DNA of 64,000 nt from an uncultured Oscillospiraceae bacterium (GCA_964474405.1 CAYYUV010000002.1:19349-83348), one strand, 5' to 3'. Positions 22,879 to 27,835 are shown, numbered from the stretch's first letter. Notes: generated from the letters alone by a model not told the origin. Program-made: numbers and translations.

Positions 22879-24281
22879 AAGTCGTTGAGATTGTGCGAGC
22901 CGTCGCGCTCGTGATGAACTATCTTTCGCTGCTATATGTCGTGGTCATCAGCACGATCTATCTTGTCCAGCTGATCGCCGCGTCGATCGGCATGAAGCGT
23001 TATGTCAAATCCCTCCGCTATACCGATTACAGCCGGTTTGCCGAATCGGAGAACATGGTGCCGATCTCGGTGCTGGTTCCGGCGTACAACGAGCGGGAGA
23101 CCATCGTGGACAACGTTAAAAACCTGCTGTCGCTCGATTATCCGGAATATGAGGTCATCGTGATCAACGACGGCTCGAAGGACGACACGTTACAGCTTTT
23201 GATCGATGCGTTTTCGCTGATTCCGTTTGAACAGCCCTATCGCAAGCAGCTGCCGACCGAGTGCGTGCGCACCGTGTACCGCTCGCCGGGGTTTGTGAAT
23301 CTAATCGTGCTGGACAAGGAAAACGGCGGCAAGGCCGACGCGCTGAACGCCGGCATCAACCTGTCCCGTTATCCGGTGTTTGTCTCGATCGACGCCGATT
23401 CCATTTTGGAAAAGGAATCCCTCATCAAGATCGTATTCTCCTTTATGGAGGACCCCACCTGCATCGCCGTCGGCGGCATTGTGCGCATCGGCAGCGGCTG
23501 CCGCATCGTGGAAGGGCAGCTTCGGGAGGTCGGCCTGTCCGGCAATCCGCTGGTGTCGTTGCAGACGACCGAGTATCTGCGCGCCTTTTTGACGGGGCGG
23601 CTGGGCTTCAACATGCTTGGTATGCTGCTCATCATCTCGGGCGCGTTCGGCGCGTTTTCCAAGCAGGCGGTCATCGACGCGGACGGCTATACCCGCGGCT
23701 GCATCGGCGAGGATATGGAGCTGGTGGTGCGCCTGCATGAAAAGATGCGTGAGCAAAAGCGCAAGTATTCCGTCAAATTCCTGCCCGACCCCATCTGCTG
23801 GACCCAGCCGCCGGAGAAGCTGCGCGACCTGAAAAAGCAAAGAAAGCGCTGGCACATCGGGCTGCTGGACAGCCTTTTAAGGCACAAAAAGATGCTGCTT
23901 AACCCGAAATACGGCCGCATCGGCATGGTGTGCCTGCCGTATTATTGGTTCTTTGAGATGCTGGGGCCGCTCCTCGAGACGTTCGGCTATCTGTTTGTGC
24001 TGATATCGTATCTGCTGGGCGTGGTGGATCTGCACTTTACGGTCTCGTTCTTCCTGGTGGCCGTGCTGTATGGCACGATCCTGTCCACCGGCGCGCTGCT
24101 GCTGGAGGAAAACACCTTCCGCAAATATCCGGATATCCGTCAGCTCATCAAGCTGTATTTTTACTCGTTTGTCGATAACTTCGGCTATCGTCAGCTCAAC
24201 ACCATCTATAAGGTGGAGGCCACCTTTACCTTCCGCAAAAACCGCGCTGCCTGGGGCTCGATCAAGCGCAAAAAGTTCTAG
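22857..24281 (+). CDS. Processive family-2 glycosyltransferase (PgaC/IcaA/cellulose-synthase-like polysaccharide synthase)
   Basis: N- and C-terminal TM helices, VPAYNE, NDGSKDDT, DAD, GEDMEL and the processive motif QRKRWHIG (QxxRW). Alternative GTG start at 22875 (GTGA overlap). Confidence 0.85.
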   Translation: MEGGVAVKVVEIVRAVALVMNYLSLLYVVVISTIYLVQLIAASIGMKRYVKSLRYTDYSRFAESENMVPISVLVPAYNERETIVDNVKNLLSLDYPEYEVIVINDGSKDDTLQLLIDAFSLIPFEQPYRKQLPTECVRTVYRSPGFVNLIVLDKENGGKADALNAGINLSRYPVFVSIDADSILEKESLIKIVFSFMEDPTCIAVGGIVRIGSGCRIVEGQLREVGLSGNPLVSLQTTEYLRAFLTGRLGFNMLGMLLIISGAFGAFSKQAVIDADGYTRGCIGEDMELVVRLHEKMREQKRKYSVKFLPDPICWTQPPEKLRDLKKQRKRWHIGLLDSLLRHKKMLLNPKYGRIGMVCLPYYWFFEMLGPLLETFGYLFVLISYLLGVVDLHFTVSFFLVAVLYGTILSTGALLLEENTFRKYPDIRQLIKLYFYSFVDNFGYRQLNTIYKVEATFTFRKNRAAWGSIKRKKF

Positions 24282-24411
24282 CGCCCGGGTCGCGTGCGCC
24301 ATAATGCGGGATTGTGGTGCAAAAAGGGGACAGAAAGAGGATGCGCCCGAATAATATTACACATCCTGTCAAAACGCGCGAATAAGGCGCAACAGATATG
24401 TAACAAAACCG

Positions 24412-24440
24412 TTGACAAGGGCGGTCGCGTGTGATATTTT
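24412..24440 (+). promoter_or_regulatory. Candidate promoter of the riboswitch-led unit
   Basis: TTGACA (24412-24417) with TATTTT/GATATT -10 candidates 15-17 nt downstream, immediately 5' of the aptamer. Confidence 0.5.
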
Positions 24441-24456
24441 GATATCGGATAAGAAG

Positions 24457-24560
24457 AGATATCCCCACGAAAAGGCAAACCCCGTGAAAGCGGGCGGCGC
24501 AAAGCTAAAGGGTCTACGGGCGGAAACGCCTATGGCAGCCAGTTGCCGAAATGGATATGG
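24457..24560 (+). promoter_or_regulatory. c-di-GMP-I (GEMM-I) riboswitch aptamer
   Basis: AAAGGCAAACC-CCGUGAAAGCGGG-CGGCGCAAAGCUAAAGGGUC...GGCAGCCAGUUGCCGA matches the conserved GEMM-I cores, including the GNRA loop. Closing helix AGAUAUCC (24457-24464)/GGAUAU (24553-24558). Confidence 0.8.
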
Positions 24561-24626
24561 TGCGGCGTCCCGCGGGACAGGTCCCTATTTGGGAACCCCG
24601 GATGACACGGTACATTATGCTATGAG

Positions 24627-24657
24627 GCAGCCGGCAAAGGAAAGCGGCTGCTTTCTT
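24627..24657 (+). terminator. Intrinsic terminator (riboswitch expression platform)
   Basis: GCAGCCG (24627-24633), loop, CGGCUGC (24645-24651), followed by UUUCUU. Located 58 nt upstream of the first ORF. Confidence 0.7.
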
Positions 24658-24714
24658 ATGTCGGCGTTCGTGAATCGGTCTCTTCCGAATAAAAACTATC
24701 AGGAGGACGGATTG

Positions 24715-25095
24715 ATGAGCAGAAAGAAAATATTGTACGCGGCAGTGTGTCTGGCGTTGATCGTTGCCATGGTTTTGCCGGCGGTAGCCAGCGCGGAAGT
24801 GGTTCAGAAGCCGCAGAGCGGCGTTACCCAGACCATGCAGTGCTCCAAGCAGGAAACCAAGAGGCTCGAACAGATGGTCAAAAAGACCAATCAGAAGATC
24901 CTGCAGCTGGTAAAAAAGGCGCAAATGACGCCGTGGAACGACGTTGCCGAGCTGATTGCTGAGACGAATGCCTTGATCGCGGATGTGTTTGCGTATGCTG
25001 ATTCGATCGGCGCGGTGCTTGCCTGCGAATATACGGAGTATATCGTGGACGGCCAGTCGGTTTTGATCGATCCCATCCGCATCATCCGGCTGTAA
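24715..25095 (+). CDS. Small secreted protein of unknown function (126 aa)
   Basis: AGGAGG at 24701-24706. Signal peptide MSRKKILYAAVCLALIVAMVLPAVASA with an AxA cleavage site. No recognised domain. Confidence 0.7.
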   Translation: MSRKKILYAAVCLALIVAMVLPAVASAEVVQKPQSGVTQTMQCSKQETKRLEQMVKKTNQKILQLVKKAQMTPWNDVAELIAETNALIADVFAYADSIGAVLACEYTEYIVDGQSVLIDPIRIIRL

Positions 25096-25114
25096 ATCAC
25101 GCAGCGTACCCGAG

Positions 25115-25459
25115 ATGCAGATCATCCCGGCGCATTATCCGTCCGGCAAGGTTGGCCAGATCCTGCATGCAGCGGTATCCAGGATTGTCACCTTGCCGGA
25201 TGTCCGTTGTATCATCCTCTACGGCTCCTATGCCAAGGGAACGCAGACGGATACGAGCGACGTGGATCTTGCCGTTTTTTTCAACACGGAGCGGACGATG
25301 CTTTTGCCGGAGTATCGCGCGCTGACCCGCCTTTGCCGCAGCGCCGAGGTGGACATTCAGGTACAGGCGTTTTCCGCCGCGGAGCTTGCTGAGCCGTGCG
25401 GGATCATTCGTGAAATCGTCGATTACGGGGTCTTGCTCGGCTGTTGCACGGCGGAATAA
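25115..25459 (+). CDS. Minimal nucleotidyltransferase (MNT, Pol-beta superfamily)
   Basis: ILYGSYAKGTQTDTSDVDLAVFF is the GS-x(9-10)-D-x-D NTase motif; 114 aa. No clear SD upstream of the ATG. Confidence 0.75.
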   Translation: MQIIPAHYPSGKVGQILHAAVSRIVTLPDVRCIILYGSYAKGTQTDTSDVDLAVFFNTERTMLLPEYRALTRLCRSAEVDIQVQAFSAAELAEPCGIIREIVDYGVLLGCCTAE

Positions 25460-25483
25460 ATCATCGGAGATAAAGGGGAACGG

Positions 25484-26425
25484 ATGGAGGGCTTGGTCTA
25501 CAACTTTTGCGATCAGCGCGGCGTCTCTGTGGATACGGGCAGCACGGTCTTTGACCTGCTGGCCAAGCAGGGCTCCGTGGAGGTCATGCATCTTACCCTG
25601 AAAAAGAGCGACACCATCTGGCTTTGTCCCGCGGACGACGATTCGGTGATGGAATTTTTCTTTTTGCACAGCGGCGGGTTGGAGATCTCGCTGGATGAGG
25701 GGCCGCTGAAGCTCAAAACGGGTGATTCATTCTATCTCAACGCACTCCGGCACGACGTGCCGGTCAGAGCCGTCGCCGAAACGGAGCTGATCTACGTCAC
25801 CAACAGTCCCATGCTTGCCTCCTCGCAGGAGTTTGAGGCGAGTCTGCGGAAGCTGCTGATGCAGATCAACGAAAAGGATCATTATACCTACCGGCACAGC
25901 GGCGATGTGGTGCATTATGTTCGTGAGCTGTATGACTCGTTCCGGGCGGAATGCGGCAAGGTCTCGCTTGACGAGTTACTGGTGGCGGCGCTGTTTCATG
26001 ACGTCGGCAAGTGCTATGTGCCGGACGAGATCCTGAAAAAACGGGAAAAGCTTGAGCCGGAGGAGATCCGACTGATCCTGCGGCATCCGCGCGACAGCGC
26101 GCGCCTGCTGCGGCCGTACTTTGGCGAACGCGTGGCGGAAATCGCCGCCAATCATCACGAGCGTCTGGACGGCAGCGGCTATCCCAACGGCTTCACCTCG
26201 GACGAGGTCAGCTTTGCCTCACGGCTGCTGGCCGTGGCGGATGTGTTTGACGCAATGACCACCGACCGCGGGTACAACCGTATCAAGAGCGATCTGGAGG
26301 CCGCGGAGGAACTGTTTGCGTTGGATCAGCAGTATGACAGGCGCATTACCGAACGGCTTTTGACGCTAGTTCGGGAAGGAAAACTGGAAAAACCAATGGG
26401 AGGAAACGATGAACCGGCTGGATAA
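25484..26425 (+). CDS. Cupin-domain / HD-GYP-domain phosphodiesterase
   Basis: RBS AAAGGGGAA. N-terminal ~105 aa beta-barrel (cupin-like). C-terminal ALFHDVGK...HHERLDGSGYPNG...VADVFDAMTTDRGY, a full HD-GYP signature. Confidence 0.85.
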   Translation: MEGLVYNFCDQRGVSVDTGSTVFDLLAKQGSVEVMHLTLKKSDTIWLCPADDDSVMEFFFLHSGGLEISLDEGPLKLKTGDSFYLNALRHDVPVRAVAETELIYVTNSPMLASSQEFEASLRKLLMQINEKDHYTYRHSGDVVHYVRELYDSFRAECGKVSLDELLVAALFHDVGKCYVPDEILKKREKLEPEEIRLILRHPRDSARLLRPYFGERVAEIAANHHERLDGSGYPNGFTSDEVSFASRLLAVADVFDAMTTDRGYNRIKSDLEAAEELFALDQQYDRRITERLLTLVREGKLEKPMGGNDEPAG

Positions 26426-26873
26426 ATACGGATATTGGCTGATGCTCTCCGATTACGATCTCGGAACCATTGACCCGCTCGTGACGGGCAAGCGGTGGGT
26501 GTACGTTGCCTATCTATGCCAACAGGCGATCGAGCGCCAGCTCAAGGGCATGTACGTCTACTATATGGACGACGAACCGCCCAAAACACATAATGTCAAT
26601 TATCTGTTCACCAAGGTCATTTCCTGCCCCGCTTTTTTGGCCGAGGTTGATCAGGTGAGCTTTCGCATGCGAAGCTATGCGTGTGAGGATTTTTTGGCCG
26701 ACGTCATGTTCTATTACCTGTCCGATTATCCTTTCTCCTATCGCAATATCACCAGCCGCTTTATCGACGAGAAGCTGGCGATGGAGCTGGTTAACAAAAC
26801 GCACGAAAATATAGCATGGCTGCGCACCTTTCAGCCGAGCGTACCGATTCCGCAGATACCCGGTCAGGACTGA
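26409..26873 (+). CDS. HEPN-domain protein (partner type of MNT)
   Basis: GGAGG RBS and a 17-nt overlap with the HD-GYP gene. YWLMLSDYDLGT...YVAYLCQQAIERQLKG...PKTHNVNYLF fits the HEPN (KNTase-C-like) helical pattern. Confidence 0.7.
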   Translation: MNRLDKYGYWLMLSDYDLGTIDPLVTGKRWVYVAYLCQQAIERQLKGMYVYYMDDEPPKTHNVNYLFTKVISCPAFLAEVDQVSFRMRSYACEDFLADVMFYYLSDYPFSYRNITSRFIDEKLAMELVNKTHENIAWLRTFQPSVPIPQIPGQD

Positions 26874-26891
26874 TTGGATTGGCCGCACAAG

Positions 26892-26925
26892 ACCGGCGCT
26901 CCGAAGCGGGGCGTCGGTTTTTTCC
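26892..26925 (+). terminator. Intrinsic terminator after the HEPN gene
   Basis: ~12-bp stem ACCGGCGCUCCG/CGGGGCGUCGGU (two G-U pairs) followed by UUUUUU. Confidence 0.75.
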
Positions 26926-27046
26926 GATTTGCCGCAAACGCGGCGTGCGCCCTGAAGGGGCGGAGCGGCTATGGAAAAATGCGTTGGATTGTGGCATAAT
27001 GTCGGTGATGTGGGCATGGCTCACGGGGTAAGGAGGGCAACAAAGC

Positions 27047-27835
27047 ATGAGCAAAGCGGCTTTGATCCTGGTTGGGACACTGATTCCGTTTCTGGGAACG
27101 ACCTTGGGCGCGGCCATGGTGTTCGTCATCCGGGGAGGCCTTCGTCCGCGCCTGCAAAAGGCGCTGCTGGGTTTTGCGTCCGGCGTGATGATCGCGGCGT
27201 CGGTATGGTCGCTGCTGATCCCGGCGATGGATCTGGCCGCGGAGGCCGGAACGCCCGTTTATTTGCCGGCCGCCGTTGGCTTTTTGGCCGGCATCGGGTT
27301 TTTGCTGCTGTTGGATACGCTGATCCCGCATCTGCATGCAAAGGCCGAGCGGCCGGAGGGCAGACCGGTTGCGCTACGAAAAACTACGATGCTGCTGATC
27401 GCCATCACATTGCACAACCTGCCCGAGGGCATGGCGGTAGGCGTTGTGCTGTCGGGCGCGGTCGGCGGTGCGCGCAGCATCAGCGCGGCGGCGGCTGTCG
27501 CGCTGGCGGCCGGTATCGCGGTGCAGAATTTTCCCGAGGGGGCGGTGGTTTCCCTGCCGCTGCTGTCGGAGGGCGCATCCAGGCCGCGCGCCTTTCTCTA
27601 CGGCGTGATGACCGGCGTAGTCGAGCCGGTGGGCGCGCTGCTGACCGTGCTGCTTGCATCGGCGCTGACGCCCATTCTGCCGTATATTCTGGCCTTTGCG
27701 GCGGGCGCGATGATCTATGTCGTGGTGGATGAGCTGATCCCCGAGGCGCAGGCGGGCGAGCATTCCAACGTCGGCACGATCGGCGCGGCGCTGGGTTTTG
27801 CGCTGATGATGGTACTGGACATCGCGCTTGGCTGA
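27047..27835 (+). CDS. ZIP-family divalent metal (zinc) transporter, ZupT-like
   Basis: HNLPEGMAVG and QNFPEGAVVS motifs; multiple TM helices; 262 aa. Confidence 0.85.
   Translation: MSKAALILVGTLIPFLGTTLGAAMVFVIRGGLRPRLQKALLGFASGVMIAASVWSLLIPAMDLAAEAGTPVYLPAAVGFLAGIGFLLLLDTLIPHLHAKAERPEGRPVALRKTTMLLIAITLHNLPEGMAVGVVLSGAVGGARSISAAAAVALAAGIAVQNFPEGAVVSLPLLSEGASRPRAFLYGVMTGVVEPVGALLTVLLASALTPILPYILAFAAGAMIYVVVDELIPEAQAGEHSNVGTIGAALGFALMMVLDIALG

Follow-up and report, generated by a model that had tools for sequence, protein, structure and literature searches.

The unit at 24412-26925 of a 64,000-nt stretch from an uncultured Oscillospiraceae bacterium (GCA_964474405.1 CAYYUV010000002.1:19349-83348; the whole stretch is hereafter called the window) forms a self-contained cassette shared by many uncultured Clostridia. 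It shows a promoter-like site, a class I c-di-GMP aptamer, a terminator, four co-directional genes encoding SSP, MNT, a cupin-HD-GYP protein and HEPN, and an end terminator (Table 1). The reading that we prefer, whose chances of being right or wrong we hold to be about even, is one OFF unit similar to the Cd1 riboswitch, in which high c-di-GMP stops synthesis of the enzyme for a second cyclic dinucleotide and the two messengers would be in cross-talk. An RxxN enzyme behind a c-di-GMP switch may then connect two messengers instead of closing a simple feedback loop on itself.

Organization and distribution of the cassette

Every element that the first-pass annotation had listed is present, in place or a few bases away: the promoter-like TTGACA site at 24412 is borne out, the terminator proposed at 24627-24657 was found at 24627-24659, the end terminator proposed at 26892-26925 lies within that interval, and the ORFs and their junctions (19 nt, 24 nt and a 17-nt overlap, in gene order) are as described.

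Table 1. Features of the riboswitch-headed cassette, with positions counted from the first nucleotide of the window.
Feature	Position	Strand	Size or basis
Sigma-70-like promoter: TTGACA, 17-nt spacer, TG-extended TATTTT	24412-24440	+	10/12 consensus positions
Class I c-di-GMP aptamer, including P1	24459-24558	+	Rfam RF01051 c-di-GMP-I
Antiterminator helix: aptamer 3' strand AGCCAGUUGCCG (24537-24548) paired with AGGCAGCCGGCA (24625-24636), spacer hairpin enclosed	24537-24636	+	Duplex -16.9 kcal/mol
Intrinsic terminator of the platform: 7-10 bp stem, 11-nt loop, tail UUUCUUAU	24627-24659	+	Fold analysis
Hairpin occluding the Shine-Dalgarno: AAUCGGUCUCUUCC paired with GGAGGACGGAUU, just 5' of the first start codon	24673-24713	+	In MFE fold
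SSP (small secreted protein) ORF	24715-25095	+	126 aa
MNT (minimal nucleotidyltransferase) ORF	25115-25459	+	114 aa
Cupin-HD-GYP ORF	25484-26425	+	313 aa
HEPN ORF	26409-26873	+	154 aa
Operon-end intrinsic terminator: CCGGCGCUCCGAAGCGGGGCGUCGG (CCGGCGC...GCGUCGG), then UUUUUU	26893-26923	+	19 nt past HEPN stop codon

The sequence supports a single transcription unit of four co-transcribed genes at 24412-26925. The median junction gaps across the cassette loci are 35, 34 and -4 nt (the SSP-MNT median from 45 loci), and two internal terminator-like sites, both weak, were found across 150 junctions, one of them at SSP-MNT. The promoter-like site at the head of the unit is the best in 24000-27300 and lies about 20 nt 5' of aptamer stem P1; no sigma-70-like promoter was found on the + strand in 24441-26565. 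The short gaps, the lack of an internal promoter-like site and the conserved gene order support the proposal that a riboswitch-headed operon co-regulates the secreted protein and the MNT/HEPN pair. It is highly improbable that the riboswitch controls SSP alone and that the three 3' genes are transcribed independently: in most loci no gene is closer to the riboswitch than SSP, and the Shine-Dalgarno-occluding hairpin stands before it, but the SSP-MNT gap is short both in the window and in the median and has one weak terminator-like site, no promoter-like site was found inside the operon, and the variants without SSP show the riboswitch directly 5' of MNT.

The gene order is kept in more than 50 loci, with flanking genes that vary between species. 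The hosts belong to Christensenellaceae, Oscillospiraceae and other Clostridia, many of them uncultured, and the recurrence of riboswitch and gene order across dozens of independent loci is far beyond chance. The cassette occurs as a single copy, in synteny with pilus genes. Nine loci keep the riboswitch, MNT and HEPN without SSP and without HD-GYP, and one locus (L020) contains the riboswitch, SSP and HD-GYP without MNT and HEPN; the parts are thus separable, and the unit must serve some purpose beyond phosphodiesterase (PDE) feedback. MNT is seemingly decayed in two loci with an intact HEPN (L008 and L014), both of them large-contig MAG assemblies in which assembly errors are possible.

No published description of an SSP-MNT-HD-GYP-HEPN cassette was found in the literature. 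The association between GEMM and HD-GYP is known already, since the 2007 GEMM survey places GEMM 5' of HD-GYP and GGDEF genes and also associates it with cpaA (Weinberg et al., Table 2; PMC1950547). The window shares with that list an HD-GYP gene whose 5' UTR contains a GEMM/c-di-GMP-I aptamer, but here the HD-GYP gene is the third of a four-gene cassette, is a cupin fusion and is an RxxN variant.

The c-di-GMP aptamer and its expression platform

A GEMM-I-like aptamer had been proposed at 24457-24560, and the covariance-model check agrees: RF01051 matches 24464-24550 over all 87 model positions with 75.6 bits (gathering score 35; E = 4.8e-13), the sole Rfam match in the 64-kb window. Stem P1 is formed by AUAUCC (24459-24464) and GGAUAU (24553-24558). 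The equivalents of the ligand-contact bases, in Vc2 numbering, are G20 at 24474, A47 at 24501 and C92 at either C of 24546-24547, and a G occupies the position-20 equivalent in 52/52 cassette aptamers. Aptamers with G20 discriminate against cGAMP (PMC6140456). The identity of the window aptamer as GEMM-Ib, the 3'3'-cGAMP riboswitch, was rejected, as its position-20 equivalent is G and not A. By sequence and contact bases it is a genuine c-di-GMP-type class I aptamer, which would respond to that ligand.

The fold of the platform is mutually exclusive with the aptamer: the antiterminator uses the aptamer 3' strand and the terminator 5' half. In the terminator stem, GCAGCCG (24627-24633) pairs with CGGCUGC (24645-24651), and the U-tract is weaker than that of the relatives, whose homologous terminator has a U4-7 tail in 20/24 and 28/30 leaders (two sets). 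The best pairing partner of the terminator 5' half is the aptamer 3' strand, within its last ~12 nt, in 46/51 leaders (21/23 and 25/28). The MFE fold of 24455-24662 is the antiterminator conformer, with -78.6 kcal/mol; the competing folds show -73.9 kcal/mol with the terminator enforced and -66.5 kcal/mol with aptamer plus terminator. The median terminator probability in leader modelling rises from 0.16 for the free aptamer to 0.97 when the aptamer is sequestered, and the 41 modelled leaders are OFF-like in 29 cases and ON-like in none; in 11 the terminator is stable whichever of the two states is modelled. Since the aptamer 3' strand pairs with the terminator 5' half, the riboswitch is predicted to be OFF, that is, c-di-GMP binding should terminate transcription; thermodynamic models are the only source of this polarity. 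A generic terminator scan missed the platform terminator because of its 11-nt loop. Hairpins similar to the one that occludes the Shine-Dalgarno are common among the leaders of the relatives.

Experiments show the Cd1 riboswitch of C. difficile to be an OFF switch (PMC9262584, PMC6200980). Cd1 (Cdi-1-3), 5' of flgB in Clostridioides difficile, belongs to the same aptamer class, RF01051, with G20/A47/C92, and in both switches the antiterminator is formed by the aptamer 3' strand and the terminator 5' strand, with the ligand leading to termination (predicted in the window). Cd1 controls flagellar genes, whereas the window switch controls SSP, MNT, HD-GYP and HEPN. Unlike Cd1, the cassette has a 45-75-nt spacer hairpin inside the antiterminator loop, and the window shows a weak U-tract and a polarity predicted from models.

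In the Cd1-like reading, the aptamer 3' strand and the terminator 5' half would form the antiterminator when no ligand is present, and RNA polymerase would read through into SSP, MNT, cupin-HD-GYP and HEPN. With c-di-GMP bound, the aptamer would be locked, the terminator would form and the operon would be off, and high c-di-GMP would leave the cell without production of the enzyme that removes the second cyclic dinucleotide. The first-pass annotation had proposed that the messenger gates its own hydrolase, in a loop homeostatic or bistable depending on polarity. The c-di-GMP-type aptamer, the terminator, the co-transcribed HD-GYP gene and their conserved association agree with the gating, but the RxxN motif makes "its own hydrolase" doubtful. 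The predicted OFF polarity excludes a homeostatic loop, so that the only possible self-feedback is a double-negative latch, which would operate as far as c-di-GMP is also a substrate of the enzyme.

The HD-GYP enzyme and its specificity motif

The third protein matches Pfam HD_5 (2e-32, 112.7 bits against 27.2) and contains the HD-GYP metal-ligand set H...HD...H...HH...D and the HHExxDGxGYP motif, with H138, H172/D173, H201, H224/H225/E226, G230, G232/Y233/P234, D253 and D256 invariant. Its Cupin_2 match reaches 22.1 bits, below the 27.2 cut-off; Cupin_2 is matched by 18/19 family members at E <= 0.01 (best 9.6e-7), and the canonical His metal ligands of cupins are not conserved. The specificity motif is R262-G-Y-N265 (26267-26278), RxxN where c-di-GMP enzymes have Rxx(K/R), and RGYN aligns with the RPYK stretch of PmGH (R314/K317) in a PDB alignment set of V-cGAP3, PmGH and PA4781. 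RxxN is present in 48/59 cassette homologues. K occupies the fourth position in only three of them, which form a clade with the canonical RPYK (L071-L073), and R only in an extra paralog of one locus (L081); neither appears in the main clade. A dedicated c-di-GMP-type Rxx(K/R) motif was sought in the window enzyme and discarded, as RGYN stands in its place.

The Rxx(K/R) motif of c-di-GMP HD-GYPs recognises guanine, by R314/K317 in PmGH, and a preprint gives Rx2(K/R) in 88% and RxxN in 196 of 11,504 HD-GYPs and reports that Rxx(Q/N) enzymes prefer 3'3'-cGAMP (10.1101/600031). Five Rxx(Q/N) candidates were active there, three selective and two degrading both dinucleotides, and the link between RxxN and cGAMP comes from one characterised RxxN enzyme and several RxxQ enzymes (10.1101/600031). 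By its residues the window HD-GYP is catalytically intact and fits the Rxx(Q/N) GAP motif class; given the rare RxxN class, it is most likely not a dedicated c-di-GMP enzyme but one with a preference for 3'3'-cGAMP or with activity on both dinucleotides. As in the window, the cGAMP-selective HD-GYPs ("GAPs": PmxA with RxxQ, Bd2325 with RxxN) show an amide residue at motif position four. They differ in context, Cache/HAMP in the GAPs and an N-terminal cupin here, and the window host belongs to a Clostridia lineage for which no cGAMP synthase was found in the 64-kb window. Of the earlier description as a c-di-GMP-type phosphodiesterase, the intact HD-GYP stands, and the substrate is doubtful given RGYN here and RxxN across the family.

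If the HD-GYP were instead a c-di-GMP PDE, double-negative (positive) feedback would couple the OFF switch to the enzyme, making a bistable latch with an attached and a free state: at low c-di-GMP the PDE would be made and the level would stay low, and at high c-di-GMP the PDE would be silenced in a self-sustaining manner. This seems rather unlikely. It agrees with the aptamer type, the intact catalytic set, the close PDB relatives PmGH and PA4781, which are c-di-GMP PDEs, the two of five active Rxx(Q/N) preprint enzymes that degraded both dinucleotides, the three homologues with RPYK and the presence of HD-GYP among the GEMM-associated gene families (PMC1950547). However, most homologues have N for the guanine-recognising K/R, which the main clade never shows; the top PDB match is a PDE specific for cGAMP (itself with the canonical motif); and the riboswitch-MNT-HEPN variants contain no PDE.

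SSP, MNT, HEPN and the neighbouring pilus riboswitch

The computations show what the aptamer and its contact bases are, how the platform is built, that the operon is conserved and which motifs its proteins carry; the response to the ligand, the substrate of the enzyme and any roles of SSP, MNT and HEPN are inferred. SSP shows a signal-peptide-like N-terminus, a two-helix hairpin and a four-strand beta meander (model pLDDT 77), and its 27 homologues share the invariant motif C-E-Y..Y..DGQ.VLIDP; no Pfam family and no fold match in PDB were found for it. MNT matches Pfam Polbeta (7e-11) and NTP_transf_2 (8e-9), and its catalytic motif GS...DxD...D is intact (GSx10DxD), with G37, S38, D49, D51 and D80 invariant. 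Against the MntA model NF047752 it reaches 43.8 bits, under the cut-off of 60, and its best PDB match is MntA, weak at 9e-4. HEPN matches PF05168 (1.3e-7, 32.2 bits against 22) and is conserved more than any other cassette gene, with 71-73% mean column identity across families, an invariant SDYPFSY loop and two invariant tyrosines, Y107 and Y111, in a flexible loop. Its model (pLDDT 89) is a four-helix up-and-down fold whose top Foldseek matches are 1wol, 1ufb, 3o10, 2hsb and 1o3u (probability 0.91-1.0), by name ST0689, TT1696, the sacsin HEPN domain, AF0298 and TM0613. It belongs to the PF05168 class and not to HepT/DUF86, with HepT structures matching weakly (probability <= 0.3). The Rx4-6H motif is absent from HEPN, where neither H nor D follows the invariant R117 at a distance of 5-7 residues, and a PADLOC search gave no match for it.

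A type VII-like toxin-antitoxin or stress module under c-di-GMP control, with a HEPN RNase neutralised by MNT AMPylation and with SSP and HD-GYP as passengers, is very unlikely. Like HepT/MntA, the cassette shows a minimal Pol-beta nucleotidyltransferase gene 5' of a HEPN gene, the order of the classic pairs (PMC3710099), with GSx10DxD and a weak MntA resemblance in MNT and conserved tyrosines in the C-terminal part of HEPN, and nine loci keep the pair with the riboswitch when SSP and HD-GYP are missing. Against it stand the HEPN class, the missing Rx4-6H motif, the weak HepT matches, the sub-threshold MntA score and the lack of a PADLOC match. HepT/MntA is mobile and fast-evolving, whereas the cassette pair is single-copy, syntenic with pilus genes, under riboswitch control and so conserved in HEPN as to be unusual for a toxin; it is also split in most loci by the gene of a 313-aa enzyme, and MNT is seemingly decayed beside an intact HEPN in the two MAG loci, assembly errors permitting.

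By analogy with the nucleotidyltransferase and HD domains of GlnD, MNT and HEPN, the latter as substrate-binding subunit, might add a nucleotidyl group to a protein or make a nucleotide signal that the HD hydrolase removes, under c-di-GMP gating. This writer and eraser arrangement is pure inference and distinctly unlikely. We know of no HD-GYP that strips nucleotidyl groups from proteins, which counts against it, as do the separation of the components in the nine riboswitch-MNT-HEPN loci and in the locus with riboswitch, SSP and HD-GYP, and the size of MNT, far smaller than known cyclic-dinucleotide synthases. The three genes are nevertheless tightly linked, HD-GYP and HEPN overlapping or nearly abutting, the conservation of HEPN suggests several interaction constraints, and the seven loci with an adjacent A20-type riboswitch point to a second nucleotide signal in these organisms. 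In the literature, Pol-beta nucleotidyltransferases have HEPN domains as partners that bind the substrate, and there are toxin-antitoxin pairs "domesticated" as regulatory enzymes (PMC3710099).

The exopolysaccharide locus beside the unit had been taken as a typical c-di-GMP context, but this position is not conserved; what recurs next to the cassette is a Tad/Flp pilus operon, which has a riboswitch of its own. The survey gene cpaA encodes the Tad prepilin peptidase. Within the 64-kb window no Tad operon, no recognisable cGAMP synthase and no GGDEF gene were found. The neighbouring Tad riboswitches are of the ordinary G20 type in 15/25 cases, and in seven relatives the Tad operon following the cassette is headed by an A20 aptamer, a cGAMP or bispecific signature. 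These A20 neighbours speak for the preferred cross-talk reading; the G20 type of most Tad riboswitches, the lack of a Tad operon and of a synthase gene in the window, and the RPYK clade speak against it. The whole cassette could be imagined as a c-di-GMP-gated node for a second nucleotide messenger, with the RxxN HD-GYP as eraser of 3'3'-cGAMP or a related signal, MNT-HEPN as split writer or protein-modifying effector and the A20 riboswitch of the relatives reading the signal for Tad pili, which we consider quite unlikely; if true, Clostridia from guts and digesters would have a riboswitch-to-riboswitch relay between two cyclic dinucleotides. GEMM-Ib (3'3'-cGAMP) riboswitches are present in Geobacter, including pilM, and Cbe 1-2 of Clostridium beijerinckii are bispecific (PMC6140456, PMC9262584). 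The A20 riboswitch just 3' of the cassette in the seven relatives resembles them and controls pilus genes, as in Geobacter pilM, whereas the aptamer of the window itself differs by its G20; pilM is an ON design, and the platforms of the Tad riboswitches in the relatives are unlike it.

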